Notes under the pieces: model-generated
What the model was told of the DNA's origin: nothing
Seen by the model: the letters and a program-made list of their open reading frames with translations, nothing else
Databases searched by the model: none
Assembly: GCA_031553315.1 (NCBI GenBank)
Contig: JAVBLT010000001.1
Span: 4,139 to 68,138, forward strand
From: Kiritimatiellia bacterium
GTDB taxonomy: Bacteria; Verrucomicrobiota; Kiritimatiellia; RFP12; DVOR01
Reading direction: 5' to 3'
DNA: 64,000 nt
Position numbers and translations under genes: made by a program
Shown: one piece after another, positions 23,102 to 60,180 of the stretch
How positions within the stretch are numbered: position 1 is the first letter of the stretch
Layout of the letters: each line of letters begins with the position of its first letter

Positions 23102-23170
23102 GAAACACCCTTTACCTTCAATCAGCAATCCGGTATAGTATCAGGCGTTAGAACCGATATAGGAGACGCC

Positions 23171-25258: not shown

Positions 25259-25460
25259 CCCATGCACAGCGGCATAGACAACGTCGTCATCTGCGCCTCC
25301 GCCGGCTCAGGCAAAACCTACCAGCTCGCCCAGCGCTACATCAGCCTCCTCCGCCAAGGCGTCCCACCCGAACGCATCTGCGCCCTCACCTTCACCCGCA
25401 AAGCCGCCGGAGAAATGTTCGATAAAATCGTAGAAGCCCTCCTCCGCGCCCAACACGAAG

Positions 25461-25472
25461 CCCCCCCCCCCC
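25461..25472 (+). repeat. homopolymeric C12 tract at the first frameshift site of the helicase gene
   Basis: 12 consecutive C; reading frame changes from phase A to phase B across it. Confidence 0.8.
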
Positions 25473-27447: not shown

Positions 27448-27458
27448 CCCCCCCCCCC
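27448..27458 (+). repeat. homopolymeric C11 tract at the second frameshift site of the helicase gene
   Basis: 11 consecutive C; reading frame returns to the original phase across it. Confidence 0.8.
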
Positions 27459-29393: not shown

Positions 29394-29469
29394 GCCGGGT
29401 TAGCTCAGTTGGTAGAGCAGCTGATTTGTAATCAGCAGGTCGTCGGTTCGAGTCCGGCCCCCGGCTCCA
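29394..29469 (+). tRNA. tRNA-Thr (anticodon TGT)
   Basis: GCCGGGTTAGCTCAGTTGGTAGAGCAGCTGATTTGTAATCAGCAGGTCGTCGGTTCGAGTCCGGCCCCCGGCTCCA. Confidence 0.85.
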
Positions 29470-29552
29470 AATAACAAAATAAAAATCAATTATTTAATCA
29501 AAACAAGCCCAAATAAAAACAGTCAAGCAATTCAAAAATTTCTGACAGCTTC

Positions 29553-30656: not shown

Positions 30657-30658
30657 GG

Positions 30659-31183
30659 TTACCCTTTCACAATCCGTTCGATCATCTTTTCAAAGTCTTC
30701 GGTGATTTTTTTTTCGCTGTCGGCCAGTGCCCGCTCGATGAATTTATGGTCGGCGCGGTCGCCCTTCGCCCGCGTGCCGGGGCCGCGTTTGCGCCAACTG
30801 GTACCCTTTTCATTGTGGATTTTCGCGGCGTATTTGCCCGCCTCGCTGTTGGCGGCCACAAAAACCTCGGCCTCAAGGCTGGGATACACCTTCTGTTCGA
30901 TGCTCCGCTCAAGACCTCGGGGTTTGGCGCGGCTTGTGGCGCGGTTGTTGCGCTTACCTTTGCGCTTGGTTTTTTTGAGAGCGTTTTTCTGTGCCTGCGT
31001 GGGGCTTCGGGGGGCGTTGCGCCGCGCCTCGCGCTGCACGAGCAGAGCGGCTTTCGCAAGTTGATCATTGACCCTTTCGAGCAATTTCTTGCCCTTGAAG
31101 CCCAATTGCGCGACCAATAAGCCGACGTCTAAACCTGTGGTGTAAATCTCCATGCCATTGGCCACGGTGTCAACCCGGGGCAC
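30659..31183 (-). CDS. phage-related protein, possibly an HK97-gp10-like head-tail connector (weak)
   Basis: 174 aa, Lys/Arg-rich middle; stop codon lies 2 nt from the transposase start; lies in the phage-remnant island. Confidence 0.35.
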   Translation of the reverse strand: MPRVDTVANGMEIYTTGLDVGLLVAQLGFKGKKLLERVNDQLAKAALLVQREARRNAPRSPTQAQKNALKKTKRKGKRNNRATSRAKPRGLERSIEQKVYPSLEAEVFVAANSEAGKYAAKIHNEKGTSWRKRGPGTRAKGDRADHKFIERALADSEKKITEDFEKMIERIVKG

Positions 31184-31198
31184 AAAAAAGCCGCCCGG

Positions 31199-31465
31199 TC
31201 AGGGGCGGCGGTTGAGGCGTGCGAGGCGTGATTGCTTCGGGTCGAAACCGATGAGATTCCATCGCTTCTTTTTTGGGTCGTACTCATACTCGGCGTCTTT
31301 TTCAACAAATTCTTTGATGCGCGCCTCGGTTACAGTCATATCAAGGTCGGGCTCATTTGCGAATCTCGCCATGCCGATAGCTTTATGAATGGCGAATGCC
31401 CGCGCGGGGTGGCGCCCCGTTCCGGCGGGAAGGGTACCCCAATCCTCTTTGTAAAGCCCGACCAT
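31199..31465 (-). CDS. small hypothetical protein immediately downstream of the MuF C-terminal module (candidate immunity protein); start uncertain (31465 ATG or 31582 TTG)
   Basis: 88-127 aa; lies in the same low-GC (~45%) segment as the MuF C-terminal domain; no motif. Confidence 0.3.
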   Translation of the reverse strand: MVGLYKEDWGTLPAGTGRHPARAFAIHKAIGMARFANEPDLDMTVTEARIKEFVEKDAEYEYDPKKKRWNLIGFDPKQSRLARLNRRP

Positions 31466-31529
31466 CTCATCGAAGTCGGCGTCTGTGTAGCCCAAATCCG
31501 GGCGAAAATCATAAATTAAATGCACGGAG

Positions 31530-32816
31530 TTACTCCTCTTTGTGGCGAAGCACCTTATACGACATTCCTGTTTCTTTTGCAACTCTTTTCCAAATCATAT
31601 TTCCTTCCAATATGTCACGTTCGGCTCTGGTTATCCGTTCGCTTGCCATTCGTTTGGAAAGGATTTCATTCACTTCTCTTTCCGCCTTCAAGTAGGATCT
31701 TGTGATGTCGTTTTCGTGTGGCCATTTTCCCTCACGGGTCATTACATAGTCGCGGCGAGGCGAAACCGCGCGAATCGAGCGCATGTTGCCATCTGCCGCC
31801 GTCACCACGTCCGCAAAGGAAAGACTGGTTCCGTATCCCATAAACTGCCCGGGGTGGTTGTGAACCATCGTCGCATCAACAAGTTTTCCAAACCACTCTT
31901 TTGGAAGTTTCCCGCCGTTTACGCCACTGCGCTTCCGGTCGAAAAGCATATTGCCGTTGGAATCCATCGCACTGAAATACTCGCACCCCTTCGATTTCAT
32001 GTAGTCGCGCTCACTGGCAATTTTAGCCTTCAGTTCCGGGCTTTCGATACGGTCTTCGGCGCGTTGCTTTTCAATTTGCTTCGCTTCCTCTTTTTCGAGT
32101 TTTTCACCGTATTTTCGCCCCTCCGCCGCCGCGCGTTCCCGTGCCTTTTCGAGTCGCGTTTCTTTTCGGTCATCTTCGCGCTGTTTTACGCGTTCCTTCG
32201 CTCCTGCTATTTTTTCTTTTCTCGCCGCTTCCCGCGCCTTCTTCGCTTCGCGCTCGGGGTCTTCGCCGCGGGCTCGCCCCGCCGCCGCCTTGAGGCCGCC
32301 GACAACCTCCTCGGCTCCGGCGCCGCGTTCCACGCGTAAAACGCCGCCCCTGCTACTCATGCGGAAGCCCGGCTGTTCGCCCTTCTTGGCATACTGGATG
32401 CGCGGCAGCTCGCCCTTGTAAAACGTATCAAGGTCTTCGGGCTTGGCCGATGCCGCCGCTTCCTTCGCAATGGCGCTGTCGAAAAGACCGTGGCGCACGG
32501 CGGTTTCGACTTCATCGCGGGCGGTCTGGCGCTCGGCATCTTGCCGCGAAAGCCCCCCCTCCTCCATGTGGCGCCGCGTGGTCAATTCGCGTTGGCGGCG
32601 GTGCATGGCCTCTTCATCGGCCATCTCATCGGCGGTCGGCTTGCCCAGCGCCGCCTGCCGCGCCATTTCGCCCGCTTCGCGCGGTTCGTCGATGTATTCC
32701 AGGCGATGGGTGCAGTTGGGGTGAAAGACTCCCGCCGCCTGCGCCTCGGCGTAGGTCGGGTAATCCTTCGATTTGCCCGCCACGCAGACGATTTGCCCCT
32801 CCCATGCGCCGCACAC
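31530..32816 (-). pseudogene. N-terminally truncated phage MuF/SPP1-gp7 family head morphogenesis protein with charged linker and divergent C-terminal domain
   Basis: begins (GTG) just before the MuF domain's terminal motif VFHPNCTHRLEY (hPNCRC-like); open frame upstream to 32990 lacks the rest of the domain; long E/K/R-rich linker; the last ~150 aa sit in a low-GC segment. Confidence 0.5.
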
Positions 32817-43640: not shown

Positions 43641-44048
43641 ATGAGCGATTCATGTGTTTTTTGCCGGATTTTCAAAGGGGAAATCCCTTCGCGCCGTATC
43701 TTTGAAGACGACCACGCCTACGCGTTTCTCGATATTGAGCCCGCCGAAGAAGGCCATACCCTCGTGATCCCCAAATTCCATGCCGCCACCCTCTTCGAGC
43801 TCCCCCCCGAAGAGCTCGCCGGCATGATGCCCGCCGTTCACCGCGTGGCCATGATGCTCCGCCACCGCCTCGCCTGCCACGGCATGAACCTCCTGCAATC
43901 CAACGGCGCCTGCGCCCTCCAGACCGTGGGCCACGTGCATTTCCACCTCATTCCCCGCTGGGAGAACCGGGCCGTGACCTGGCACGCCAACCGCGAAGCC
44001 GCCGCTCCCGAACAGCTCGATGCGCTTCACAAAAAAATCATTGGCTAA
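43641..44048 (+). CDS. HIT-family nucleotide hydrolase (HinT-like)
   Basis: 135 aa; CVFCRIFKGEIPS..., histidine triad HVHFHLIPR. Confidence 0.85.
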   Translation: MSDSCVFCRIFKGEIPSRRIFEDDHAYAFLDIEPAEEGHTLVIPKFHAATLFELPPEELAGMMPAVHRVAMMLRHRLACHGMNLLQSNGACALQTVGHVHFHLIPRWENRAVTWHANREAAAPEQLDALHKKIIG

Positions 44049-44066
44049 GCCCCGGAAAATTTGAAC

Positions 44067-47000
44067 ATGGACAACGCACACATCGAGCAGCTGCCCGCTC
44101 CAGGCCAGCGCCTTCTCAAATGGGTTGGAGACGTTCTGGAAATCAACGTCAAGCGCCTGGGCGAAAAGCGCCCCGGCCGCATGGTCTTCCGCACCAACAT
44201 CGGCCAAGCCCCCGTCTACCGCCGCGAGCTCATCGCCGAAGTGGAGACCGACGCCCCCATCCTCGGGAAAGACTGGCACGACCTGCCCATGCTCGAAACC
44301 ATCCCCGGCCATTACCGCGTGCGCATTCCCCTGCTCCAGGTCGGCATTTTCTCCGGCAAGGCCTGCTTCCTCCCCGCCGGCTGCGACACCCCCGAATGGC
44401 CCTGCGGCGCGAACCTCACCGTTAAAGTGGCCCCCGCCCACACCGCCGCCGGCAACACCCTCTACGCCGCCTTCACCCGCCAGTTCTCGAAAACCTACAC
44501 CCTCCCCGCCTCACCCGGCGCCCACGCCGCCCTCGAAAAGCTCTTGGATCAACACGGCTACACCGTGATCCCCCCCTCGGGCACCTTCCGCGCCCTCATC
44601 CGCGAGCTGGATCACATCCTCGGCGCCCTCGGTTTCCGCACGCTCCTGCTCCTGCCCATCCACCCCACGCCGACCACCTACGCCCGCATGGGCCGCTTCG
44701 GCTCCCCCTTCGCGGGGCTCGACTTTCTCTCCATCGACCCCGCCCTGGCCGAGTTCGACCCCGCCGCCACCCCGCTCGACCAGTTCAAAGAACTCCTCAA
44801 CGCCGTCCATGCCCGCCAGAGCGCCCTCTTCATGGATCTGCCCGCCAACCACACCGGCTGGGCCGCCACCTTTCAGACCCACCACCCCGAATGGTACAAA
44901 CGCAACCCCGACGGCTCCTTCCATTCCCCCGGCGCCTGGGGCGTGGTCTGGGAAGACCTCGTGGAGCTCGATTACAGCCACGACGCCCTCCGCCGCGCCA
45001 TGGCCGACGTGTTTCTCTACTGGTGCCGGCAGGGGGTCGACGGTTTCCGCTGCGACGCCGGCTACATGATCCCCGCCGCCGCCTGGTCCTACATCGTCGC
45101 CCGCGTCCGCGAAGAATTCCCCAACACCATCTTCCTCCTCGAAGGCCTCGGCGGCCCCATGCAGACCACCGACGACCTCCTCAGCCATTCCCACCTCGAC
45201 TGGGCCTACTCCGAGCTCTTCCAGACCTACGACCGCTCCGCCTGCGAACAGATGCTCCCCCACGCCATCGCCCTTTCCCAGGCCTGCGGCCCCCTCGTCC
45301 ACTTCGCCGAAACCCACGACAACAACCGCCTCGCCGCCCAAGGCCCCCTCTACGCCCGCCTGCGCACAGCCCTCTCCGCCCTCCTCTCCCAGCAAGGCGC
45401 ATTCGGCATCACCGCCGGCGTGGAATGGCTCGCCACCGAGAAGATCGACGTCCACCGCGCATCCGCCCTCAACTGGGGCGCGACCCCCAACCTCGTGGCC
45501 TGGATCCGCCGCCTCAACCTCATCCTCGCCCAGCACCCCGCCTTCGGCCCCCACACCACCCTGGGCATGATCCAGCAAGGCGGAGGCAACGTCCTCGCCG
45601 TTCGCCGCGCCTACGGGCAAGGCTGCGCCAAAGCGCTTCTCATCCTCATCAACTTCGAGCTCGGCCACCCCCAGACCGTCAGCTTCTCCGACCCCCTCTT
45701 CACCGAAACCACCCTCCACGACCTCATCACCGGCCGCGCCGTCGCCATCCACCCGGGCGGCCTCGTATCGCTCCAGCCCGGCGAAGCGCTCTGCCTCACC
45801 GCCGACCCCGGCGAGGTCGCCGCCATTGAAGCCGCCGCCCACCGCACCCAAGGCTGTTACCCCGTGCAGGGGCTCATCGAGCGCGCCCGCCGCGTGATGG
45901 CCATGCGCACCAAAGAAGCCCTCGGCGAAACCTACGACACCGACCCCGAAGCCCTCAAAAACCTCGGCCACGAACTCTTCAGCAACCCCGCCCGATTCTG
46001 CTCCGACCGCCACGGCATCCCCCGCGCCATCCGCTTCAGCCTCCCCGAAGACCTGACCCGCCAAGTCATGGTCCCCCCCGGCTTCCTCCTCTGGGTCGCC
46101 TCACCCGCCGAATTCCGAGCCCAAGTCGCCCGGCCCGACGGCACCGTCTACCACACCACCGCCTCCATACCCTTTGAAGACGGCACCCACGGCGCCATCT
46201 TCAGCGTACACGACGGCCACACCCGCACCCCCCACACCGCCCTCATCACCTTCGGCATCTACGCCCGCGAAAAAGCGTACCGCGCCCAGGCCCAAATCAT
46301 CGCCCTCCCCGAGCCCGGCCTTCAGAAAACCGTCATCCGCCAATTCCCCGGCCACCAGATCCGCAAAGACGAAACCCTCCTCACCCTCCTGACCAACGGC
46401 ACCGGCGCCATGAGCCAGATCCGCCTCGCCTGGAGCGCCATCCGCAGCCAATACGATTGCCTCCTCGCCCTCAACAGCCACCCCGGCGTGCCCGCAGACC
46501 GCACCGTTTTCCTCACCCGCTGCCGCGCCTGGCTCCGCTACAACGGCTACTCCGCCCCCATCGACGCCTCCTGCCTTGAACACTTCACCGCCGACGCCGC
46601 CGGCGAAGCCGCCGAATGGCTCTTCGCCGTACCCTCCGGCATGGGCCGCAAAGTGCAGATCCGCCTCCGCCTCGCCCTCCAGCCCGGCGCCAACCGCCTC
46701 GCCATGGCCATCACCCGCGAAGACAGCCCCAACACCCCCGCCGACGCCGTCACCCTCATCCTCAGGCCCGACATCGAATGGCGCAACTTCCACACCAAAA
46801 CCAAAGCCTTCGCCGGCCCCGAAAAAGACTTCCCCCATTGGTCCCGCCACACCGATACCGGCTTCCACTTCACACCGCCGGGCGCCCAACCCCTCGAAAT
46901 CAGCCTCAGCCAAGGCCAATGGCACCCCCAGCCCGAATGGATCTACATGGTGCCCAACCCCGACGAAACCGCCCGCGGGCAAGACGGCTCCACCGACCTC

Positions 47001-48317
47001 CACAGCCCCGGCTGGTTCGAGCTCCCCCTGCAAAACGGCCAGACCGCCCGCCTCACCGCCGGCGAACAAAACGCCCCCCAAGCCCCCATCCCAGGCCTCC
47101 ACAAAACCCTCGACCCCGAACCGCTCACCCTGCGAGAAGCCATGCACCAGGCCATCCGCGCCTACGTCGTCCGGCGCGACACCCATAAAACCGTCATCGC
47201 CGGCTACCCCTGGTTCCTCGACTGGGGCCGCGACACCCTCATCGTCCTGCGCGGCCTCATCGCCGACGGCCAGATCGACACCGCCTACGACATCATCTAC
47301 GAATTCGGCCGCTTTGAAAAACACGGCACCCTCCCCAACATGATCCGCGGCGAAGACGACGCCAACCGCGAAACCGTCGACGCCCCCCTCTGGTTCGGCG
47401 TCTGCGCCGGCGACCTCATCGCCCACAGCGGCCCCCAAAAAGCCCTCGCCTTCCGTTGCGGCCAGCGCACCCTGCGCGAAATCCTCCTCTCCATCGCCGA
47501 AAACTACATCAAAGGCACCCCCAACGGCATCCGCGTAGACCCCGAAAGCGGCCTCGTCTTCAGCCCCTCCCATTACACCTGGATGGACACCAACTACCCC
47601 GCCGGCACCCCCCGCGAAGGCTACCCCGTTGAAATCCAGGCCCTCTGGGCCCGCCTGCTCGACATCCTCGCCCAGCACATCGACCCCCGCTGGAAAGACC
47701 TCGCCGCCCAAGTCCGCACCTCATTCGCCCGCCTCTTCGCCCTCCCCGGCGCCGGCGGCCTCGCCGACTGCCTCCGCGCCACCCCCGGCACCCCCGCCGC
47801 CCTCGCCGCCCAGGACGACGCGATCCGCCCCAACCAGCTCTACGCCGTCACCCTCGGCCTCCTCGACCAGAACCGCCCCCTCGCCCGCGCCGTCATCCAA
47901 ACCTGCGAACAGCTCCTCACCCCCGGCTCCATCCGCACCCTCGCCAACCGCCCCGTCAAACTCCCCCTTGAAATCCTGCGCAACGGCCACCTCCTCGGCG
48001 ACCCCCGCCACCCTTACCGCGGCCGCTACGAAGGCGACGAAGACACCCTCCGCAAACCCGCCTACCACAACGGCACCGGCTGGACCTTCCCCTTCCCCCT
48101 CTACGCCGAAGCCCTCCACCGCGCCTACGGCCCCCACGCCCGCGCCACCGCCCTCGCCTGGCTCGGTTCCGCCACAGACCTCGTCAACAAAGACTGCGTA
48201 ACCCAGCTCCCCGAATGCACCCAGGGCGACGCCCCCCACGAACCCTGCGGCACCCACGCCCAAGCCTGGGGCGTCAGCGAGCTCCTGCGCGTGCTCATCC
48301 TCCTCCAGCAGCCATGA
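44067..48317 (+). CDS. glycogen debranching enzyme, eukaryote-type (GH13 alpha-amylase catalytic domain plus amylo-alpha-1,6-glucosidase GDE_C domain)
   Basis: ~1416 aa; GH13 region (GFRCDAGYMIPAAAW; FLLEGLGG); C-terminal six-hairpin glucosidase region (GYPWFLDWGRDTLIVLRGL). Confidence 0.7.
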   Translation: MDNAHIEQLPAPGQRLLKWVGDVLEINVKRLGEKRPGRMVFRTNIGQAPVYRRELIAEVETDAPILGKDWHDLPMLETIPGHYRVRIPLLQVGIFSGKACFLPAGCDTPEWPCGANLTVKVAPAHTAAGNTLYAAFTRQFSKTYTLPASPGAHAALEKLLDQHGYTVIPPSGTFRALIRELDHILGALGFRTLLLLPIHPTPTTYARMGRFGSPFAGLDFLSIDPALAEFDPAATPLDQFKELLNAVHARQSALFMDLPANHTGWAATFQTHHPEWYKRNPDGSFHSPGAWGVVWEDLVELDYSHDALRRAMADVFLYWCRQGVDGFRCDAGYMIPAAAWSYIVARVREEFPNTIFLLEGLGGPMQTTDDLLSHSHLDWAYSELFQTYDRSACEQMLPHAIALSQACGPLVHFAETHDNNRLAAQGPLYARLRTALSALLSQQGAFGITAGVEWLATEKIDVHRASALNWGATPNLVAWIRRLNLILAQHPAFGPHTTLGMIQQGGGNVLAVRRAYGQGCAKALLILINFELGHPQTVSFSDPLFTETTLHDLITGRAVAIHPGGLVSLQPGEALCLTADPGEVAAIEAAAHRTQGCYPVQGLIERARRVMAMRTKEALGETYDTDPEALKNLGHELFSNPARFCSDRHGIPRAIRFSLPEDLTRQVMVPPGFLLWVASPAEFRAQVARPDGTVYHTTASIPFEDGTHGAIFSVHDGHTRTPHTALITFGIYAREKAYRAQAQIIALPEPGLQKTVIRQFPGHQIRKDETLLTLLTNGTGAMSQIRLAWSAIRSQYDCLLALNSHPGVPADRTVFLTRCRAWLRYNGYSAPIDASCLEHFTADAAGEAAEWLFAVPSGMGRKVQIRLRLALQPGANRLAMAITREDSPNTPADAVTLILRPDIEWRNFHTKTKAFAGPEKDFPHWSRHTDTGFHFTPPGAQPLEISLSQGQWHPQPEWIYMVPNPDETARGQDGSTDLHSPGWFELPLQNGQTARLTAGEQNAPQAPIPGLHKTLDPEPLTLREAMHQAIRAYVVRRDTHKTVIAGYPWFLDWGRDTLIVLRGLIADGQIDTAYDIIYEFGRFEKHGTLPNMIRGEDDANRETVDAPLWFGVCAGDLIAHSGPQKALAFRCGQRTLREILLSIAENYIKGTPNGIRVDPESGLVFSPSHYTWMDTNYPAGTPREGYPVEIQALWARLLDILAQHIDPRWKDLAAQVRTSFARLFALPGAGGLADCLRATPGTPAALAAQDDAIRPNQLYAVTLGLLDQNRPLARAVIQTCEQLLTPGSIRTLANRPVKLPLEILRNGHLLGDPRHPYRGRYEGDEDTLRKPAYHNGTGWTFPFPLYAEALHRAYGPHARATALAWLGSATDLVNKDCVTQLPECTQGDAPHEPCGTHAQAWGVSELLRVLILLQQP

Positions 48318-49198
48318 CCGACAGCGGCCCCCCCACCCTCACCCGCCTCCGCCAGCGCAGCGACCTCCTGCGCGCCGTGCGAAACTTCTTTTACGACCGC
48401 GCCTTCCTCGAAGTAGAGACCCCCGTCCGCATACCCGCCCCCCCCAACGAAGCCTTCCTCGAAGCCCCCCCCTCCGGCCCCCGCGCCTGGCTGCGCACCT
48501 CCCCCGAGCTCCACATGAAACGCCTCCTCGCCGCCGGCACAGGCCCCATCTTCCAGATCGGCCCCTGCTTCCGCCAAAACGAACGCGGCGCCCGCCACAA
48601 CCCCGAATTCACCATGCTCGAATGGTACCGCCCCAACGAAACCATCGAAAGCCTTTATGCCGACGTCGAGGCCCTCTGCCACACCCTCGGCCTCACACAC
48701 CCCGCCCCCTTCCCCCGCCACACCCTCGACACCCTCTACCGCCGCCACGCCCACTGGTCCCCCCTCGAAACCTGGGATGAAGACCGCTTCGACACCGACA
48801 TGGCCCTCCTCATCGAGCCCGCCCTCCCCCAGACCACCCCCTGCTTCCTCACCGGCTACCCCGCCCAAGCCGCCGCCCTCGCCCGCCTCAGCCCCACCGA
48901 TCCCCGCATCGCCGAACGCTTCGAATTTTACCTCAACGGCATTGAAATCGCCAACGCCTACGGCGAGCTCACCGACCCCGCCGCCCAGCGCGCCCGCTTT
49001 CAAGAAGCCGCCGCCCGCCGCGCCCGCCACACCCTCACCGTGTACCCGCTCGACGAACCCTTCCTCCAAGCCCTCCCCGCCATGCCCCCCTCCGCCGGCA
49101 TCGCCCTGGGCCTCGACCGCCTCGCCATGCACCTCAGCGGCGCAACAGCCATCGACCAGGTTCGCGGCTTCTGCCCCCCCATCGGCCACTGCTGGTAA
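48314..49198 (+). CDS. epmA: EF-P lysine ligase (lysyl-tRNA synthetase paralog GenX/PoxA)
   Basis: class II aaRS core without anticodon-binding domain: FLEVETPV, FQIGPCFRQNERGARHNPEFTMLEWY, GIALGLDRL; ATG overlaps the GDE stop. Confidence 0.7.
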   Translation: MTDSGPPTLTRLRQRSDLLRAVRNFFYDRAFLEVETPVRIPAPPNEAFLEAPPSGPRAWLRTSPELHMKRLLAAGTGPIFQIGPCFRQNERGARHNPEFTMLEWYRPNETIESLYADVEALCHTLGLTHPAPFPRHTLDTLYRRHAHWSPLETWDEDRFDTDMALLIEPALPQTTPCFLTGYPAQAAALARLSPTDPRIAERFEFYLNGIEIANAYGELTDPAAQRARFQEAAARRARHTLTVYPLDEPFLQALPAMPPSAGIALGLDRLAMHLSGATAIDQVRGFCPPIGHCW

Positions 49199-49263
49199 AA
49201 GAAGCGCCCTATGATTCCACCGATAAATGACAGCGCGAAATGATTGCCAATTGAAGCCGCATC

Positions 49264-50271
49264 GTGTATACTACACCGGATATCTTAGAGGAAGCTAAAG
49301 CGATGCAAACACTCGACACCTCCACGTTCACCCAGGCGCTTGAAAAGACCCGCCGCCCCTATCAGGCCGATTACTACGCCTTCTACTCCAGCCTCTGGGA
49401 TGCCGTGACCTTCGACCCCGCCCTCATGCTCATTCCGGTCGACGACCACGTGGCGCACCGCGGCGACGGAGTCTTCGAAACCTTCAAATGCGTCAACGGC
49501 GCCGCCTACCTGCTCGAAGCCCACCTCAGCCGCTTTCACCGCTCCGCCTCCGGCATCTGCATCAGCTTTCCCGGCGGCAAAGCCGCCATCCGCGAAAAAG
49601 TGATCGCCGTGATGAAAGCCGCCGGAAAAGCCGATTGCTCCGTGCGCCTGCTCCTCTCCCGCGGCCCCGGCAGCTTCGGGGCAGACCCCGCCTCCGCCAT
49701 CGGAGCCGTGCTCTACATCGCCGTCTACGCCCTGGGCAAGCCCTTCATGGTCAAACACCCCGAAGGCGCCCGCGCCTGCCGGAGCCGCATCCCCCAGAAA
49801 CACGCCGACTTCGCAACCATCAAAACCTGCAACTACCTCCCCAACGCCCTCATGAAAGAAGAAGCCCGCCTGCTGGATGTAGACTTCACCGTGGGCTTCG
49901 ACGACAACGGCTTTATGACCGAAGGCGCGGTCGAAAACGTCGGCATCGTCTCCAAAACCGGTCGCCTCACCTTCCCCCCGCTCGACACCATTCTCCCCGG
50001 CACCACCATGCTCAGAGCCGCCGACCTCGCCCGGAGCCTCGAGGAAAAAGGCCTCATCAGCGGCGTGACCTTCCAGCAGATCACCTATAAAGACATGCTC
50101 GAAGCCCGCGAAATCCTCATCGTCGGCACCACCCTCAACGCCGTCGCCGTCGTCCAATTCGAAGGCAGAACCGTCGGCACAGGCACCCCGGGCCCCGTTT
50201 GGGAAGCCCTCAACAGCCTCCTCGTTTGCGACATCGAAAGCAATCCCGCCCTCCGCACCCCCTTTATGTGA
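49264..50271 (+). CDS. class IV (fold type IV) aminotransferase, BCAT/aminodeoxychorismate-lyase-like; alternative start 49303
   Basis: 335 aa; fold type IV pattern with EAHLSRFHRSA and catalytic-lysine region. Confidence 0.65.
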   Translation: MYTTPDILEEAKAMQTLDTSTFTQALEKTRRPYQADYYAFYSSLWDAVTFDPALMLIPVDDHVAHRGDGVFETFKCVNGAAYLLEAHLSRFHRSASGICISFPGGKAAIREKVIAVMKAAGKADCSVRLLLSRGPGSFGADPASAIGAVLYIAVYALGKPFMVKHPEGARACRSRIPQKHADFATIKTCNYLPNALMKEEARLLDVDFTVGFDDNGFMTEGAVENVGIVSKTGRLTFPPLDTILPGTTMLRAADLARSLEEKGLISGVTFQQITYKDMLEAREILIVGTTLNAVAVVQFEGRTVGTGTPGPVWEALNSLLVCDIESNPALRTPFM

Positions 50272-50291
50272 TTGAAAGAAAAGGTTTCCCC

Positions 50292-50747
50292 ATGAAATCA
50301 TACAACACCATGCTTGAAGACGCCGTCGTCGTCAGCGACCTCAAAGCCACCGACATGTTTGGCGCCATCGCCGAATTGACCGATGCCCTCGTTGAAAACG
50401 GCAAGCTCTCCACCGAAAGCCGCGAAGCCGCCCAGCAAGCCGTCGTCCGCCGCGAAATGAGCGCAACCACCGTCATGACCGACGAAATCGCCCTGCCCCA
50501 CGGCCGCACCGACGCCGTCGACACCCTCATCTGCGCCGTCGGCGTCAGCAAACAAGGCTTCAACGGCGAAGCCCCCGATGAAAAGCTCACCCGCATCGTC
50601 GTCATGCTCCTCATCCCCCCCAATTCAGGCGTCGGCTACATCCAGTTTCTCGCCAACCTCAGCCGCGTGCTCATGGAACCGCGCAACCGCGAAACCATCG
50701 TCAGCGCACCCACCCGCGAAGCCGTCCTCACCGCAATGACCGTCTAG
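50292..50747 (+). CDS. ptsN: PTS EIIA type-2 domain protein (PtsN/EIIA-Ntr-like regulator)
   Basis: 151 aa; active-site His in IALPHGRTD; no other PTS component nearby, which fits a regulatory EIIA-Ntr. Confidence 0.65.
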   Translation: MKSYNTMLEDAVVVSDLKATDMFGAIAELTDALVENGKLSTESREAAQQAVVRREMSATTVMTDEIALPHGRTDAVDTLICAVGVSKQGFNGEAPDEKLTRIVVMLLIPPNSGVGYIQFLANLSRVLMEPRNRETIVSAPTREAVLTAMTV

Positions 50748-50760
50748 CAAGGATAGCCCC

Positions 50761-53700
50761 ATGTTCAAGCCCGTCTCAAACAAGCCCGACTTCCCCGCCA
50801 ACGAAGAAGCCATCCTCGCCCAGTGGCAGGAAGAACAAACCTTCAAACAAAGCCTTGAACAGCGCAAAGACGCCCCCCCCTTCGTCTTCTACGACGGCCC
50901 CCCCTTCGCCACCGGCCTCCCCCACTACGGCCACCTCCTCGCCGGCACCATCAAAGACATCGTCCCCCGCTACCAGACCATGCGCGGCCGCTACGTGGAG
51001 CGCCGCTTCGGCTGGGATTGCCACGGCCTGCCCATCGAAGCCCTCGCCCAAGAAGCCCTCGGCGTGAGCGGAGCCTACGAAATCCGCAACCTCGGCATCG
51101 CCGCCTTCAACGAACAATGCCGATCCATGGTCCAGCGCTACGTCGCCGAATGGGAAAAAACCGTCACCCGCATGGGGCGGTGGGTCGACTTCGAAAACGA
51201 CTACAAAACCATGGATCCCACCTTCATGGAAACCATCTGGTGGGTCTTCAAACGCATCTTCGACCAGGGCCGCGTCTACAAATCCCACCGCATCATGCCC
51301 TACAGCTGGAAACTCTCCACCCCCCTCTCCAACTTCGAAGCCGGCAACAATTATAAAGACGTCCAAGACCCCGCCGTCACCGTCCGCTGCCGCCTCAAAG
51401 CCCCCGACCCCGCCTGGGGCGAAGAAACCCACCTCCTCATCTGGACCACCACCCCCTGGACCCTCCTCACCAACTTCGCCATCTGCGCCGGCCCCGACAT
51501 CGACTACGTCGCCCTTCGCGACCTCAAAGAAAGCCGCACCTACATCCTCGCCCAGGCCCGCGTGTGCGCCTACTACAAAAACCCCGAAGAATACCAGATC
51601 CTCCAGACCTTCAAAGGCAGCCGCCTCAAAAGCCTCGCCTACGAACCCATCTTCCCCTGCTACGCCGGCAAACCCAACGCCTTCGTCGTCGCCACCGACG
51701 ACTACGTCACCACCACCGACGGCACCGGCCTCGTCCACAACTCCCCCGCCTACGGCGAAGACGACTTCCGCGTCTGCCAAGCCCTCGGCATCACCCTCGA
51801 AGACCCCATGGACGAATCCTGCGCCTTCACCGCCCCCGCCCCCGAAGAATACCGCGGCCGCTTCTGCAAAGACTGCGACAAAGACATCATCAAAGCCCTC
51901 AAAGCCACCGGCAAACTCGTCCACCAAACCACCATCGTCCACTCCTACCCCTTCTGCGACCGCACCGACACCCCCCTCATCTACCGCGCCATCGACGCCT
52001 GGTACATCCGCATCGAAGACATCCGCCACCGCCTCCTCGCCGCCAACGCCACCACCCGCTGGATGCCCGAATACGTCGGCGAAAAACGCTTCGAAAACTG
52101 GCTCAAAGACGCCAAAGACTGGAACATCTCCCGCAACCGCTTCTGGGGCTCCTGCATCCCCATCTGGGTCAACGAAACCGACCCCACCGACCTCATCTGC
52201 ATCGGCTCCATCGCCGAGCTCGAAACCCTCAGCGGCCAAAAAGTCACCGACCTGCACAAACACAACATCGACCCCATCCTCATCCAAAAAGACGGCAAAA
52301 CCTACCGCCGCACCCCCGAAGTCCTCGATTGCTGGTTCGAATCCGGCGCCATGCCCTACGCCCAGCGCCACTACCCCTTCAGCGGCACCGGCACAGAAGC
52401 CGACTTCTTCCCCGCCCACTTCATCGCCGAAGGCCTCGACCAGACCCGCGGCTGGTTCTACACCCTCCTCGTGCTCGGCACCCTCCTCTTCGACCAATCC
52501 CCCTACCGCAACGTCGTCGTCAACGGCCTCATCCTCGCCGAAGACGGCAAAAAAATGAGCAAACGCCTCAAAAACTACCCCGACCCCATCCACGTCATCA
52601 ACACCTACGGCGCCGACGCCCTCCGCCTCTACATGGTCCACTCCCCCGTCGTCCGAGCCGAAAACCTCCGCTTCAGCGAAAGCGGCGTCAAACAGCTCCT
52701 CCGCGACCTCCTCATCCCCTGGTGGAACGCCTACAGCTTCTTCGTCACCTACGCCAACGTCGACGGCTTCGAAGAACCCCAAGTCACCGTCCCCGACAGC
52801 CCCAACGACCTCGACCGCTGGATCGTCAGCTCCATCGAAACCCTCATCCAAGACGTCACCGCCGCCATGGATTCCTACGACCTCCAGCGCGCCGTCCGCC
52901 CCTTCGTCGCCTGCGTCGAAGACCTCACCAACTGGTACATCCGCCGCTCCCGCCGCCGCTTCTGGAAAACCAAAGACGACGCCGACAAACGCCACGCCTA
53001 CCGCACCCTCCGCTACATCCTCGTACAGCTCGCCAAAGTCGCCGCCCCCTTCACCCCCTTCATCAGCGACACCATCTACCGCAACCTCAAAGGCCCCGGC
53101 GATCCCCCCTCCGTCCACCACAGCCCCTTCCCCACCCCCAACGCCGCCGCCCGCGACCGCGACCTCGAAACCCGCATGGCCCTCGTCCAGCAAGTCGTCA
53201 AACAAGGCCGCCAGCTCCGCACCGAAAACGACCTCAAAACCCGCCAGCCCCTCCCCGCCCTACACATCGTCAGCGCCAACCCCGAAATCCGCCGCATGCT
53301 CACCGGCTTCGAAGCCACCATCTGCGAAGAGCTCAACGTCAAAGAAATCCGCTACGGCGCCGACGAAACCACCCTCGCCACCCTCACCGTAAAGGCCGAC
53401 TTCCGCAAACTCGGCCCCCGCTTCGGCGCCAACATGAAACACATCGCCGAGCTCATCACCCGCCTCACCCAGCAGCAAGCCTCCCACCTCGCCGCCGGCG
53501 CCCCCATCGACCTCACCCTCGACGGCGAACCCATCACCCTCACCGCCGCCGACATCACCCTCCAGCGCACCCCCCACCACGGCCTCGTCGTCTCCACCGG
53601 CGGCGACCTCCTCACCGCCCTCGAGACCGACCTCACCCCCGCCCTCATCCACGAAGGCCTCGCCCGCGAAACCGTCAGCCGCATCCAAGCCCTCCGCAAA

Positions 53701-53901
53701 GACGCCGACCTCGCCGTCACCCAGCGCATCGCCCTCACCCTCCAGACCGACCCCGAGCTCCAGACCGCCCTCCAAACCTGGCGCGCCTACCTCCTCGAAG
53801 AAACCCAGGCCGACACCCTCCTCTTCGCCCCCACCGAAGCCCCCCCCCTCGACATCAACGGCCACCCCTGCGCCATCCAAATCGACCCCATCGCCGGGTA
53901 A
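50761..53901 (+). CDS. ileS: isoleucyl-tRNA synthetase (type 2, eukaryote/archaea-like form)
   Basis: 1046 aa; HIGH (PHYGHLL), KMSKS (KMSKRLKN), CP1 editing domain, no C-terminal Zn-finger extension. Confidence 0.9.
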   Translation: MFKPVSNKPDFPANEEAILAQWQEEQTFKQSLEQRKDAPPFVFYDGPPFATGLPHYGHLLAGTIKDIVPRYQTMRGRYVERRFGWDCHGLPIEALAQEALGVSGAYEIRNLGIAAFNEQCRSMVQRYVAEWEKTVTRMGRWVDFENDYKTMDPTFMETIWWVFKRIFDQGRVYKSHRIMPYSWKLSTPLSNFEAGNNYKDVQDPAVTVRCRLKAPDPAWGEETHLLIWTTTPWTLLTNFAICAGPDIDYVALRDLKESRTYILAQARVCAYYKNPEEYQILQTFKGSRLKSLAYEPIFPCYAGKPNAFVVATDDYVTTTDGTGLVHNSPAYGEDDFRVCQALGITLEDPMDESCAFTAPAPEEYRGRFCKDCDKDIIKALKATGKLVHQTTIVHSYPFCDRTDTPLIYRAIDAWYIRIEDIRHRLLAANATTRWMPEYVGEKRFENWLKDAKDWNISRNRFWGSCIPIWVNETDPTDLICIGSIAELETLSGQKVTDLHKHNIDPILIQKDGKTYRRTPEVLDCWFESGAMPYAQRHYPFSGTGTEADFFPAHFIAEGLDQTRGWFYTLLVLGTLLFDQSPYRNVVVNGLILAEDGKKMSKRLKNYPDPIHVINTYGADALRLYMVHSPVVRAENLRFSESGVKQLLRDLLIPWWNAYSFFVTYANVDGFEEPQVTVPDSPNDLDRWIVSSIETLIQDVTAAMDSYDLQRAVRPFVACVEDLTNWYIRRSRRRFWKTKDDADKRHAYRTLRYILVQLAKVAAPFTPFISDTIYRNLKGPGDPPSVHHSPFPTPNAAARDRDLETRMALVQQVVKQGRQLRTENDLKTRQPLPALHIVSANPEIRRMLTGFEATICEELNVKEIRYGADETTLATLTVKADFRKLGPRFGANMKHIAELITRLTQQQASHLAAGAPIDLTLDGEPITLTAADITLQRTPHHGLVVSTGGDLLTALETDLTPALIHEGLARETVSRIQALRKDADLAVTQRIALTLQTDPELQTALQTWRAYLLEETQADTLLFAPTEAPPLDINGHPCAIQIDPIAG

Positions 53902-53961
53902 TCCGCTCCAAACAGAAAAGTGGTTTTGTGATATTCTGGTGCGAAATGAAAGGGTTTCTCC

Positions 53962-54206
53962 ATGCCGGAATGCAAAAACCGTAAATGCGGACGCCTCATC
54001 AAAAGTGAATTCACACGAGGAAAGCAACCGTATCACTGCTTGGAATCCGGTTATCATTTTGTTGCCGGCGAGGCCGGACCCATGAAAAAATCGCGGCTCG
54101 AAAAGCGATGTGCGTGTTGCTTTACACGCAGGGCAAAGCCTCCTTCACCATGATTGCCAAACGCTTTGATATGCGGCAAAAACAAGCACTTGCCATCTGT
54201 AGGTGA
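53962..54206 (+). pseudogene. remnant of a transposase N-terminal DNA-binding region (Zn-ribbon CxxRxCG..YHC plus HTH), frameshifted
   Basis: MPECKNRKCGRLIKSEFTRGKQPYHCLESGYHF (zinc ribbon), then RLEKRCAC with a frameshift into VLLYTQGKASFTMIAKRFDMRQKQ (HTH-like); low-GC; abuts ssrA. Confidence 0.3.
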
Positions 54207-54305: not shown

Positions 54306-54660
54306 TGGTGGAGGCGGGGGGAGTTGAACCCCCGTCCGAAACAGCGTTATTCCAGCCTCTACGTGCGTGTTTCACCTTCAGTTCTCGCCGCGGGGAATGC
54401 CGGTGAACGGGCTCACCCCGCGGCCAGAAGCCACGATTCGTCAAGACTCGGACGCCCGGCTACCCGGCCTCCGGCAGGATCTGCTAGTCGTCGCGTTCCC
54501 GCTCAGCAGACATCGGCGGTTCAGCGTCGGGGCCTAATTAGGCCGCGAGGGCGAAGTTATCGTTCGCAGTTGTGTTGTTGATGGATGTTTTACGGGGCCA
54601 ACCATCATCCCCGGCACGCAACCAAAACTCCGACATGCCCCGTCGAAACCGGTCGCCCCC
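54306..54660 (-). ncRNA. ssrA: tmRNA (ssrA); encoded tag peptide ANDNFALAA
   Basis: 5' end GGGGGCGACCGGTTTCGACGGGG, 3' tRNA-like end GGACGGGGGTTCAACTCCCCCCGCCTCCACCA, tag ORF GCG AAC GAT AAC TTC GCC CTC GCG GCC TAA. Confidence 0.9.
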
Positions 54661-56674: not shown

Positions 56675-57223
56675 ATGGCTAAAAACATCCTCATCCTCAC
56701 CGGCAGCCCCCGCAAGGGCGGCAACACCGACCTGCTGGCCGACGCCTTCGCCAAAGGCGCCGCCGCCGCAGGCCACACCGTGGCCCGGTTCGATTCGGGC
56801 CGCGCCCGAATCGGCGGCTGTGTAGACTGCAAGACCTGTTTCAGCAACGAGGGCAAGGCCTGTTCGTTTGACGACGACTTCAACGCCCTCGCCCCCCTCA
56901 TTGCCCAGGCCGATGCGATCGTCTTCGCCGCCCCGCTCTACTTCTTCACCTTTCCCGCCCAGATCAAGGCCGCCATCGACAAACTCTACGCCTTCTTCGT
57001 AGCCGGAAAACCGCTGAAGATCAAGGAAAGCGCCTTCATCGCCTGCGGCGAGACCGACGACCCCGCCCACTTCAAAGGCATGGTCGAAACCTACCAAATC
57101 ATGGCCGGATTCCTCGGCTGGGCCGACAAAGGCCGGATCATCGCAACCGGCGTCCACACGAAAGGCGACGTGCTCGGCACACCCTTCCTTCAGCAGGCCG
57201 AAGCGCTCGGAAGCGCACTTTAA
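56675..57223 (+). CDS. flavodoxin-fold NADPH-dependent FMN reductase / iron-sulfur flavoprotein-like
   Basis: 182 aa; ILILTGSPRKGGNT FMN-binding start, compact Cys cluster CVDCKTCFSNEGKAC. Confidence 0.65.
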   Translation: MAKNILILTGSPRKGGNTDLLADAFAKGAAAAGHTVARFDSGRARIGGCVDCKTCFSNEGKACSFDDDFNALAPLIAQADAIVFAAPLYFFTFPAQIKAAIDKLYAFFVAGKPLKIKESAFIACGETDDPAHFKGMVETYQIMAGFLGWADKGRIIATGVHTKGDVLGTPFLQQAEALGSAL

Positions 57224-57233
57224 CGAACGCGCC

Positions 57234-57328
57234 TAGAGCAGGTTTAAATTGAAACTTCGTGATTTTTGCCGAATCCTTGAACGCGAGCCGTAGCAGCGTT
57301 GCCGAAGTTTCATTTTAAATATGCTCTA
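57234..57328. mobile_element. MITE copy D (95 bp)
   Basis: TAGAGCAGGTTTAAATTGAAAC ... GTTTCATTTTAAATATGCTCTA, a 22-bp inverted repeat pair. Confidence 0.5.
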
Positions 57329-57339
57329 TACACAAAAAA

Positions 57340-57381
57340 GCACAGATGCGCCCATGATCCGCATCTGTGCTTTTCTTTTTT
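57340..57381. terminator. intrinsic terminator (11-bp perfect stem plus T-run)
   Basis: GCACAGATGCG-cccatgatc-CGCATCTGTGC-TTTTCTTTTTT with an A-run upstream. Confidence 0.6.
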
Positions 57382-57426: not shown

Positions 57427-60051
57427 ATGATGAAACGTCTACTGAGCTGTGTTGTCCTCCTCTTCGCAAGCGGCCCCGCATTCGGTTATCCCGCGGTCGA
57501 AGGCCTCATCGGCCGCCTCCTGCCCGCCTATCAGGATCAGATCGTGTTGGAAGACAATCTCCCCCCCGCCCCCGGCGGGCGCGACGCCTTCATCATTTCC
57601 ACCGACGCCCGGGGCCGCCTCGTGCTCGGCGGCTCCAGCCCCGTGGCCCAGGCCTCCGCCCTCGGCTGGTACCTCCGCCACACAGCCGGTTGCGAAGTGA
57701 GCTGGGAAGGCACACAGCTCAACCTCCCCGAAAAGCTCCCCCCCCTCGCCCAGCCCATCCAAAAAACCACCCCCTACCGCTTCCGCCCCTACCTCAACTA
57801 CTGCACCCTCAGCTACTCCGCCCCCTTCTGGAACTGGCAACGCTGGGAGCGCGAGATCGACGTCATGGCCCTCAACGGCATCAACATGCCCCTCTCCCCC
57901 ATCGGCCTTGAAGGCGTGTGGTACAACATGCTCCGCCAATTCGCCTTCACCGATGCCGAAGCGCGCGAATTCCTCGTAGGCCCCGCCTTCTTCGCCTGGC
58001 AGTGGATGACCAACATCGAAGACTTCGCCGGCCCCCTCCCCAAAAACTGGATCGAGACCCACATCACCCTCGGCCAGCGCATCATGAAACGCCAGCTCGA
58101 TTTCGGCATGACCCCCATCCAGCAAGGCTTCACCGGCTTCGTACCCCTTAAAATGAAAGAAAAATTCCCCCAGGCCGCCATCAGACAGCAGCCCCCCTGG
58201 TGCGGAGCCTTCAAAGGCAGCGCCCAGATCGACCCCCTCGACCCCCTCTTCCCCAAGCTCGCCGCCGCCTTCTACGCCGAGCAGAAAAAACTCTTCGGCG
58301 CCCACGGCTACTACGGCGCCGACCCCTTCCACGAAAGCTCACCCCCCCAAGCCGGCGACGCCTACCTCACCGCCGTCGGCAAAATCATCTGCCAAGAAGC
58401 CCTCAAAGCCGACCCCGACGCCACCCTCTGCATGCAATCCTGGAGCCTCCGCACCCCCATCATGCGCGCCATCCCCAAAAACCACCTCCTCGTGCTCGAC
58501 ATCGGCGGCAAATGGGCCCGCTCAAACGCGTTCGACGGCTACCCCTTCACCATCGGCACCATCCACAACTTCGGCGGCCGCACCCGCCTCTTCGGCGATC
58601 TCGCCGGCCTTGCCCGCAACAGCTTCCTCAGCGCAAAAACCCAAAATCCCAACTGCATCGGCATGGGCCTCTTCCCCGAAGCCATCCAAAACAACCCCGT
58701 CTACTTCGGCATGATCTTCGACCTCATCTGGCGCGACACCCCCCTCGACATCGCCCAATGGATCCCCGCCTACACCGCCCGCCGCTACGGCACCCAAGAC
58801 CCCGCCATCGACCAAGCCTGGCGGCTCCTCCTCCAAAGCGTCTACAAACCCGGAACCGGCCGCGGCTCCTCGCTCATCTGCGCAAGCCCCGCCCTCAACA
58901 TACGCCAGGCAGACCCCAACGAAGGCTTCCGCATCGACTACAACCCCCTCACCCTCCTCAGCGCCTGGGAAACCCTCCTCAGCGCCAGCCCCAAAATCAA
59001 AAACGCCCCCGGCTACAGCTTCGACCTCGCCGACATCGGCCGCCAAGTCATGGCCGACACCCTCCTCGCCCTCCACTGCACCGTCGCCAACGCCTACCTC
59101 GACCAAAACCTCGCCGCCTACCGCCGCGCCGTCGAGACCTTTCACGCCTTCGCCCTCGATTTCGACGCGCTCATGAAAACCCAGCCCCTCTTCTCCTTCG
59201 AGAAATGGGTTCAGGATGCCCGCGCCTGGGGCGCCACCCCCGCCGAAAAAGACCTCTACGCCCTCAACGCCGCCCTCCAGATCACCCAATGGGGCGCCAA
59301 CGGCAACCACCGCCCCCGCATCTGCGAATACGCCTGGAAAGAATGGTCCGGCCTCATCCGCGACTACTACATCCCCCGCTGGGCCATCTTCCACAACGAG
59401 CTCGAAAAAAACCTCATCGCCGGCGCCCCCTGGCCCGATGAAGACAAAAACAAAATCAAAGACTGGGGCCGCACCGCCTACCGCACAACCCCCTTCATGA
59501 ACACCTTGGCCGACTTCGAAGACCCCTGGATCCGCTCCCCCCACATCTACCCCCCCCATCACCCCGGCGACACCCCCGCCGAAGCCGCCCGCATCCTCGC
59601 CAAATGGGGCAGCCACATCAAAGCCAGCCTCGCGACCAACCCCATCGACCAGATCCGCCGGATCCGCCAGCGCATCGCCGCGCGCGACACCACCGCCGAC
59701 CTCGGCGCCCCCGTCTTCACCTGGTCCAAAAAAGACTGCGCCCTCGGCTGGAAAACCTGGACTGTCGACATCACCCCCGCCATCATCCAAAACGGCCAAT
59801 ACGAAATCACCTTCCTCTACCAAAACGGCGGCGCCCGCCTCGACATCGCCGAAGCCACCCTCCTCCAAAACGGCCGCGAAATTTCCAAAGACGCCCACCC
59901 CGGATCCACCGGCGACATCAACACCGCCAACACCTACCTCCTGAGCCACACCGACCCCATCATCGGCGCCACCTTCACCCTCCAGGCCAAAGTCAAAACC
60001 CACGGCTCCACCAGCTCCAACGGCAAAATCTGGGTTCGCCTCCGCAAATAG
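57427..60051 (+). CDS. alpha-N-acetylglucosaminidase (GH89, NAGLU-like) with C-terminal F5/8-type C / CBM32-like domain
   Basis: 874 aa; signal peptide; YRFRPYLNYCTLSYSAPFWNWQRWEREIDVMALNGINMPL matches the GH89 N-terminal/TIM-barrel junction; stop TAG is the first triplet of MITE E. Confidence 0.8.
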   Translation: MMKRLLSCVVLLFASGPAFGYPAVEGLIGRLLPAYQDQIVLEDNLPPAPGGRDAFIISTDARGRLVLGGSSPVAQASALGWYLRHTAGCEVSWEGTQLNLPEKLPPLAQPIQKTTPYRFRPYLNYCTLSYSAPFWNWQRWEREIDVMALNGINMPLSPIGLEGVWYNMLRQFAFTDAEAREFLVGPAFFAWQWMTNIEDFAGPLPKNWIETHITLGQRIMKRQLDFGMTPIQQGFTGFVPLKMKEKFPQAAIRQQPPWCGAFKGSAQIDPLDPLFPKLAAAFYAEQKKLFGAHGYYGADPFHESSPPQAGDAYLTAVGKIICQEALKADPDATLCMQSWSLRTPIMRAIPKNHLLVLDIGGKWARSNAFDGYPFTIGTIHNFGGRTRLFGDLAGLARNSFLSAKTQNPNCIGMGLFPEAIQNNPVYFGMIFDLIWRDTPLDIAQWIPAYTARRYGTQDPAIDQAWRLLLQSVYKPGTGRGSSLICASPALNIRQADPNEGFRIDYNPLTLLSAWETLLSASPKIKNAPGYSFDLADIGRQVMADTLLALHCTVANAYLDQNLAAYRRAVETFHAFALDFDALMKTQPLFSFEKWVQDARAWGATPAEKDLYALNAALQITQWGANGNHRPRICEYAWKEWSGLIRDYYIPRWAIFHNELEKNLIAGAPWPDEDKNKIKDWGRTAYRTTPFMNTLADFEDPWIRSPHIYPPHHPGDTPAEAARILAKWGSHIKASLATNPIDQIRRIRQRIAARDTTADLGAPVFTWSKKDCALGWKTWTVDITPAIIQNGQYEITFLYQNGGARLDIAEATLLQNGREISKDAHPGSTGDINTANTYLLSHTDPIIGATFTLQAKVKTHGSTSSNGKIWVRLRK

Positions 60052-60180
60052 AGCAGATTCCGAATGAGATTTCCGGATTCTTCGAAGGTGATTTTGGGTT
60101 TTTACAAACGCTTGAGGTGAGCCGTAGCAACGCTACGGCGAGCTGAAAGGCAGATTGCAACGGAATCAAGCACGATACCC
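60049..60180. mobile_element. MITE copy E (left end defined, right end degenerate)
   Basis: TAGAGCAGATTCCGAATGAGATTTCCGGATTCTTCGAAGGTGATTTTGGGTTTT...GCCGTAGCAACGCTACGGCGAGCTGAAAG is ~90% identical to copy A over ~110 bp. Confidence 0.5.

Follow-up and report, generated by a model that had tools for sequence, protein, structure and literature searches.

We have analyzed a 64,000-nucleotide (nt) stretch of DNA from a Kiritimatiellia bacterium (contig JAVBLT010000001.1, positions 4,139 to 68,138; hereafter the window). Protein matches place the organism near the Kiritimatiellia. The window carries five copies of a family of transposable elements of the miniature inverted-repeat type (MITEs), the terminal TAG of which repeatedly doubles as the stop codon of the flanking gene. 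The reading that we consider likely is that these are MITEs of IS630 type that rebuild a TAG within a pre-existing TAA or TAG stop codon, and that their enrichment at stop codons mainly reflects the insertions that survived. Four of the five insertions in the window, and seven of nine independent insertions of other families elsewhere, lie in pre-existing TAA or TAG stop codons.

Five copies of one MITE family

The ends of the elements were located by pattern search, BLAST and alignment across the window. The pattern search gave ten ends with a common terminal pattern, against 3.3 expected by chance. By BLAST and alignment there are nine defined ends, which come from five copies (A to E) of one MITE family. 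The consensus of the terminal inverted repeat (TIR) is TAGAGCAnnTTTCGAWTGA, extending over about 19–21 nt, and is found at both ends of copies A, B, C and D and at the left end only of copy E. Copies A, B and D are flanked by TA on each side, the expected form of a target duplication, while copy C has TA on one side and TT on the other. The copies range in length from 68 to 164 bp, have no coding capacity, and are 76–82% identical over their common parts. Most reading frames that enter them from either end meet a stop codon within 0–95 nt.

Copies A (9648–9810, 163 bp) and B (16510–16673, 164 bp, 76% identical to A) are complete. Copies C (18838–18905, 68 bp) and D (57234–57328, 95 bp) are internal-deletion derivatives; D is a short form that retains both TIRs, and the right end of C is mutated, with TGCTCTT in place of TGCTCTA. 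Copy C was found again in a second sample (L123). The focal copy E (60049 to ~60173) has an intact left TIR and is 82% identical to A over 126 nt. It lacks ~37 bp at the right including the right TIR, and is therefore probably immobile. A Logan assembly of the same organism ends 24 nt into copy A (L013:9061-9087) and a Logan contig begins within copy E (L124:1-65), which suggests that there are more, and closer, copies elsewhere in the genome. Such breaks also illustrate that these elements interrupt assemblies exactly at gene ends. A search of the window with Rfam gave no match for the MITE copies, and returned only the transfer-messenger RNA (tmRNA) and three tRNAs at gathering score. Outward promoters are known in some other MITEs, and the left part of copy B (16496–16567, minus strand) has two sigma-70-like promoter matches directed outward (leftward), which are consensus matches only.

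Element ends that serve as stop codons

The first-pass annotation of this DNA had claimed that the terminal TAG (CTA on the other strand) is the stop codon of a host gene at five of the nine ends, and the lists of open reading frames (ORFs) bear this out. The left end of copy A provides the stop (9648–9650) of a plus-strand gene with Radical_SAM and B12-binding matches (8253–9650). Its other end provides the stop (9808–9810) of a putative anti-sigma gene on the minus strand (9808–10569), an ORF with a weak anti-sigma match that overlaps the upstream extracytoplasmic function (ECF) sigma gene by 4 nt. The ORF lists thus confirm that copy A supplies the stops of two convergent genes at once, as had also been noted. 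At both ends of this copy the stop TAG consists of the TA of the target duplication and the first base of the element. The right-end CTA of copy B is the stop (16671–16673) of a minus-strand Na/Ca exchanger gene (16671–17705, Na_Ca_ex). The left end of copy C is that (18838–18840) of the plus-strand tatA (18604–18840; TatA/E, TIGR01411), and the left end of copy E that (60049–60051) of the plus-strand gene for a GH89 alpha-N-acetylglucosaminidase (NAGLU; 57427–60051).

The other four ends are differently placed. The left end of D is 10 nt past the TAA (57221–57223) of a flavin mononucleotide (FMN) reductase gene and its right end precedes a terminator, while the right end of C lies 35 nt upstream of a GreA-like gene. 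The left end of B closes only an ORF of 82 codons, probably spurious, in a low-GC integrase remnant. This was rejected as a stop-codon insertion; the codon before insertion would be TAT. None of the five copies is farther than 10 nt from a stop codon.

Across the ~51 called genes of the window the stop codons are 14 TAG, 19 TAA and 18 TGA, and TAG is thus unusually common. The MITE ends supply five of the 14 TAG codons, so that the family has measurably shifted stop-codon usage.

The codons before insertion

The sequence before insertion can be reconstructed by deleting the element and one copy of the TA, when the base that lies past the far TA copy becomes the third base of the old codon. Removal of copy A in this way gives TAA for both genes, at a site cttTAacg in which a TTAA is common to the two stops. 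Removal of copy B gives TAA on the minus strand, and that of copy C gives TAG, on the assumption that the TT on its right was once TA.

Homologues that lack the element are in agreement. Two orthologues of the radical-SAM gene with no element downstream (L011 and L012; 84% and 65% identity) have the same C-terminus as the window gene, ...NAKPL, followed by TAA and TAG respectively. For this gene the comparison with loci lacking the insertion that the first-pass annotation had proposed thus gives TAA or TAG at the same position. Together with the reconstructions at A, B and C, these orthologue ends support its suggestion that insertion into the TA of a TAA or TAG regenerates a TAG. The three closest homologues of the GH89 protein (47–56% identity) share their final alignment column with the window protein. 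For the Na/Ca exchanger, alignments with homologues reach residues 340–344 of 344, at most 0–9 residues from the homologues' own ends. There is neither truncation nor extension in the genes compared with homologues. All contigs returned by look-ups of tatA and of a gene at the window end come from the same organism and carry the insertions seen here, so that no presence/absence polymorphism was found; no contig was returned for the exact proteins of the Na/Ca exchanger and of the gene that comes first in the window.

TA dinucleotides in the window

The genome is gene-dense with 63% GC, and TA is scarce in the window; we counted 905 TA dinucleotides where 2,217 were expected, a ratio of 0.41. 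AA and TT are over-represented. Outside the interiors of the elements ~736 TAs are coding, 124 are non-coding and 33 lie in TAA or TAG stops, where the division into coding and non-coding is approximate, resting on a simple gene caller based on GC content at third codon positions. The TAs of TAA and TAG stops thus make up 32–33 of the 905 in the window, and 33 of the ~157 that are either non-coding or in stops. If all TAs were equally available, the probability that at least four of five insertions fall at stops would be 7.6e-6. The sequence YTAR (where Y is a pyrimidine and R a purine) occurs at 59 of the ~890 TAs outside the elements, and 14 of these 59 are stop codons.

Relation to the IS630 family

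To judge by their ends and flanks, the short copies are MITEs of an IS630-type element, an unnamed family. IS630-family elements insert at TA and duplicate it (PMC2170065). The tenth end found by the pattern search, TAGAGCAACTTTCTATTGAAATG at 29553–29575, has the same terminal sequence as the MITEs. It belongs to a remnant of an autonomous IS630-family element (29553–30100, minus strand) that consists of the right inverted repeat and the C-terminal DDE half of a transposase. The repeat contains the stop codon (29565–29567) of the transposase ORF (29565–30656, minus strand). This ORF has a Pfam DDE_3 match (E = 1.2e-25) and scores 104.7 bits against NF033545 (IS630 family transposase; cut-off 100), matching profile positions 139–298 only.

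Pairwise comparison shows that the ORF, of 363 codons, is an in-frame chimera. Its residues 1–183 are 73% identical to the N-terminus of an unrelated protein family of ~509 amino acids that has no Pfam domain (P0138), and residues 189–357 are 61% identical to residues 137–305 of a 312-residue IS630 transposase. This suggests that a deletion joined a disrupted gene of the island to the insertion sequence (IS) remnant. No second TIR for the transposase-bearing copy was found in the window, because this copy is a 5'-truncated remnant with the right end only. A full-length relative of ~1 kb is present in a Kiritimatiellae metagenome-assembled genome (MAG; L122), with TIRs TAGAGCATTTAACGATTGAAATG / TAGAGCGCTTCACGATAGAGGTG and TA flanks. 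The TA flanks of the MITEs, the transposase remnant with the same end and this relative together bear out the proposal of IS630/Tc1-like insertion at TA.

In that MAG a type II secretion ATPase (T2SSE) gene is in several pieces (L122:1074-4322). The IS630-family element and another element, the transposase of which is of rve integrase type, have split it by insertions that are nested or adjacent.

Unrelated MITE families with the same type of end

We scanned 185,579 species genomes with a pattern that contained two TIRs. No copy of the window family was found in these genomes, from which the source genome is therefore absent, but the same scan gave ten loci of other, unrelated MITE families with TAGAGC ends. 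They are in MAGs of Blastocatellaceae, Rhizomicrobium (three MAGs), Rhizobium, Pyrinomonadaceae and Actinomycetota. At eight of the ten loci (nine of 20 ends, with one locus doing so on both sides) the terminal TAG closes an ORF of 147–428 codons. All eight of the ORFs tested have Pfam matches, seven of which are strong. Among the ORFs that are closed in this way are a complete enolase (to residue 426 of 428), a complete TerC and a complete fasciclin protein, together with an M48 peptidase and a NUDIX protein. Two of the loci (L005 and L010) represent one site, found in two MAGs, and the count is therefore seven of nine independent insertions at stops.

Reconstruction at these loci gave TAA or TAG every time. 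In the two data sets together all 12 pre-insertion codons are TAA or TAG, and none is a TAT or TAC tyrosine codon (p = 2.4e-4 at even odds). Eleven of the 14 insertions are in stop codons, for which p = 4e-5 if one quarter of the usable TAs are stops and p = 0.006 if 42% are. The behavior at stop codons thus appears to be a property of the TAGAGC end type, and not of this genome.

A family-specific left-TIR pattern found nothing in the Joint Genome Institute (JGI) metagenomes. The general pattern gave 106 metagenomic loci (L014-L119), all in contigs of coral metagenomes with 34–42% GC, and all of one ~152-bp family. These contigs are probably host (eukaryotic) DNA, so that the family is unusable for the stop-codon test, and we have used it only as a source of target flanks free from selection. 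Over 77 non-redundant sites the flanks are W-TA-W (where W is A or T), and YTAR accounts for 23% against a background of 26%. The end of the coral family, TAGAGCGGTTTTCAATTGAGTGTCG, agrees at every position over 25 nt with a MITE end in the chromosome of a Pyrinomonadaceae MAG (L006:4944-5114). This could reflect a very widespread transposase lineage, horizontal transfer or contamination. Two scans of viral contigs found none, and BLAST of three MITEs against plasmids gave no match.

Hairpins within and beyond the elements

The RNA of the complete copies is predicted to fold into a hairpin that spans the whole element with the stop codon in its base, with −71.2 kcal/mol (z = −8.2) for copy A and −42.9 kcal/mol (z = −3.3) for copy B. 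For copy E the predicted fold is no more stable than that of shuffled sequence (z = −1.2). It had been supposed that the hairpins of the elements would replace the 3' untranslated region (UTR) or terminator of the genes that they follow. The terminator part of this idea is unsupported, as no U-tract follows any of the hairpins. A scan found no hairpin with a U-tract within A, B, D or E on the relevant strand, and the central hairpins run into GUGAAG or GAGCUG with no run of U. We have rejected the MITEs as intrinsic terminators on this account.

Directly past copy D on the plus strand is a hairpin with a T-run, GCACAGATGCG..CGCATCTGTGC TTTTCTTTTTT (57339–57375), read from the sequence. It is absent from the list given by the plus-strand scan because its loop is 9 nt. 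Probably this is the terminator that the FMN-reductase gene had before copy D shifted it 95 bp downstream. The mRNA upstream of a complete copy would carry a long 3' hairpin starting at the stop codon. A part in mRNA processing or stability, such as has been suggested for other MITEs of bacteria (PMC2229807), is possible.

Why the elements are found at stop codons

The sequences show the geometry by which a stop is rebuilt. A non-autonomous transposon of IS630/Tc1-mariner type with ends 5'-GAGCA... enters a TA and duplicates it, so that the junction into the element reads TA|G on either strand. Where the target TA was the first two bases of a TAA or TAG, a TAG is created at the same codon and the protein is unchanged. 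As inverted repeats, the ends have this effect on genes to the left and to the right alike, and two convergent genes with stops on one TA, as at the TTAA of copy A, both keep their stops. For the enrichment we propose a survival filter. Insertions in coding sequence, including those in the TAY codons of tyrosine, would be lost to selection. Stops would make up roughly a fifth to a quarter of the TAs that remain and be the least harmful of them; many intergenic TAs are probably in ribosome-binding regions or promoters. The effect may be reinforced if the transposase prefers YTAR or A/T-flanked sites.

Copy D is the sole insertion in the window that is outside a stop codon. A number of points weigh against this reading. 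If only non-coding TAs and stops are allowed as targets, the probability of at least four of five insertions at stops rises to ~0.008–0.013, a value that is approximate since it depends on the same gene caller. The window on its own is thus convincing against a uniform model, but only suggestive against a model in which coding insertions are lost. The sample of 5 + 9 insertions is small, and falls short of a genome-wide census. The pre-insertion codon of copy E is not reconstructable, because the copy has lost its right end. Moreover the GH89 homologues stop with TGA, followed by a canonical terminator, so that an ancestral TAA or TAG at copy E follows only from the unchanged end of the protein. 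The C-terminal comparisons cover three of the five genes, those for radical SAM, GH89 and the Na/Ca exchanger, and the comparators are orthologues from other species, at 56–84% identity, rather than empty sites of the same strain. Lastly, selection and an intrinsic target preference cannot be separated from sequence alone.

The insertions might have a more trivial origin. In GC-rich DNA a frame tends to stay open until it meets an AT-rich triplet, here the TAG of the element, and the association could be coincidence or an artefact of calling ORFs. Spurious long ORFs are common in the window, that closed by the left end of B being a probable example. Yet family matches exist for four of the five genes (a weak one in the case of the anti-sigma candidate), three C-termini are intact and matched by homologues, the chance probability is 7.6e-6 for all TAs or ~0.01 for non-coding TAs only, and the pattern recurs in four other phyla. 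The homologue comparisons refute coincidence, and we give this explanation almost no credence. Hardly more credible is that the elements truncated genes, by entering an in-frame TAY codon or the 3' coding region so that the TAG is premature. In-frame TAs of tyrosine codons far outnumber stop codons, and C-terminal tails are often dispensable, but no TAY was found among the 12 reconstructed codons. The C-termini of the radical-SAM and GH89 proteins coincide, in residue or alignment column, with those of element-free homologues, and the enolase, TerC and fasciclin domains at the other loci are complete. Truncation is thus largely refuted. It is also improbable, though less so, that copies have been kept at the 3' ends of genes by positive selection for a benefit to the host, as terminators, RNA-stabilizing 3' hairpins or RNase targets. 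The whole-element hairpins of A and B are very stable, all the copies are close to a stop codon, and the gap between the convergent GH89 and GH16 genes has no canonical terminator besides the element, whereas the GH89 homologues have one. Against this, the element hairpins have no U-tract, the focal copy E is shorter by a third and its fold is like that of shuffled sequence, and D lies upstream of an intact native terminator. The copies are 18–24% divergent and some are deletion derivatives, which is what neutral insertions in decay would be expected to show, and they have no Rfam match.

A more serious alternative, though we think it unlikely as the main cause, is that the transposase itself targets palindromic YTAR or TTAA sequences, so that the enrichment is set at insertion and not by selection. 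Ten of the 13 reconstructed bacterial sites are YTAR, which places a stop on both strands, and six of these are TTAA; YTAR is rare in the window, and almost a quarter of its occurrences there are stop codons (14 of 59). Two of the three insertions outside stops are also at TTAA (L001 and L009), and a preference of IS630 for TA within CTAG has been reported (Tenzen & Ohtsubo 1991, as cited in PMC2170065). However, the R is forced at a stop codon, as is the Y where there is a stop on both strands. At single-stop sites the free base is Y in six of nine cases against a background of 41%, which is not significant. The coral family has W-TA-W flanks at its 77 sites without an excess of YTAR, and copies B, C and D are outside YTAR sites. 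About as doubtful, in our estimation, is a further idea, that the terminal G of a TA|GAGC sub-lineage is the element's own adaptation, one that makes TAA and TAG stops, including a TA shared by convergent genes, into protein-neutral landing sites. Such a sub-lineage would colonize gene-dense, GC-rich genomes in at least 4–5 phyla. Were this so, a preference of the transposase for YTAR would possibly help. Elements beginning with C or T would turn TAA into a tyrosine codon and be excluded from stops, and the near-identity of the coral TIR over 25 nt would hint at a very widely spread transposase lineage.

Other features of the window

Two low-GC stretches beside tRNA genes (15884–16510 and 29394–32800) look like decayed integrated elements. 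Beside the tRNA-Leu gene there is an integrase-like N-terminal fragment (16128–16337), and beside that for tRNA-Thr an ORF with a weak likeness to HK97-gp10 (30659–31183) and a weak match to phage CII (31530–32816). MITE copy B and the IS remnant are located at the edges of these stretches.

The tmRNA gene (54306–54660, minus strand), which encodes the tag peptide ANDNFALAA, is located where the called genes leave a gap of 821 nt. The smpB gene (18112–18588) is found away from it, directly upstream of tatA. In parts of the window, for example 23000–29300 and 44000–54000, the coding strand has far more C than G (GC skew −0.4 to −0.6) and long poly-C runs, while other genes of the window are near balance.

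DISCUSSION

Several known repeats share part of this behavior. RUP is a 107-bp non-coding MITE of the pneumococcus, present in many copies and thought to be mobilized by IS630-Spn1 (PMC2229807). Like the MITEs of the window it is short and non-coding, inserts at TA, occurs in many copies and has TIRs that match an IS630-family element (PMC2229807). It differs in that its sequence is unrelated, its host is low in GC, and its copies are described as lying between genes and, often, within IS elements. The literature searched reports no link of RUP ends to stop codons. IS630 and ISY100 likewise insert at TA with a 2-bp TA duplication and have transposases of the DDE family (PMC2170065), but they are autonomous elements of ~1.0–1.2 kb, whereas the window copies are non-coding and 68–164 bp. 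The end type TAGAGC...TTTCGAWTGA was not found in the literature searched.

The outcome most like that observed here is known for BOX repeats. In Streptococcus pneumoniae ATCC 700669 there are 36 genes with the extreme 3' end and stop codon inside the repeat, with no clear truncation (PMC3049150). The kind of outcome is the same, a stop codon supplied by a repeat. BOX, in contrast to the window MITEs, is a modular repeat whose terminal triplet is not itself the stop, and no explanation by TA duplication and a first base G was given. Correia/NEMIS and ERIC (RU-1) elements resemble the window MITEs in their terminal TA and TA duplication (PMC2229807, PMC2759123). Their transcripts fold into stable stem-loops, and co-transcription with neighboring genes is common (PMC2229807, PMC2759123). 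Their sequences are unrelated, and the intragenic cases of Correia and ERIC are in-frame fusions that alter C-termini, the opposite of a protein-neutral rebuilding of stops. In the literature searched we found no prior description of TA-duplicating MITEs with a first base G that rebuild stops, only these partial precedents, which does not prove novelty.

The positional rule is apparently general and probably under-described. It can be read directly from sequence, in that duplication of TA together with a first base of G (or A) in the element rebuilds a stop, and it would provide harmless sites at which to settle. To a specialist it is perhaps elegant but unsurprising. For annotation it implies stops and 3' ends that belong to a repeat, switches from TAA to TAG, and breaks in assemblies at the ends of genes. 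Since the third base of the old stop is preserved directly past the far TA copy, insertions are checkable without an empty site. For evolution it would mean that many genes gain a new 3' UTR in one step. If it is true that the ends have been selected for rebuilding stops, the family would clearly exemplify a transposon molded to limit the damage to its host; if they have not, the pattern would be the ordinary result of TA targeting and purifying selection in a TA-poor genome.

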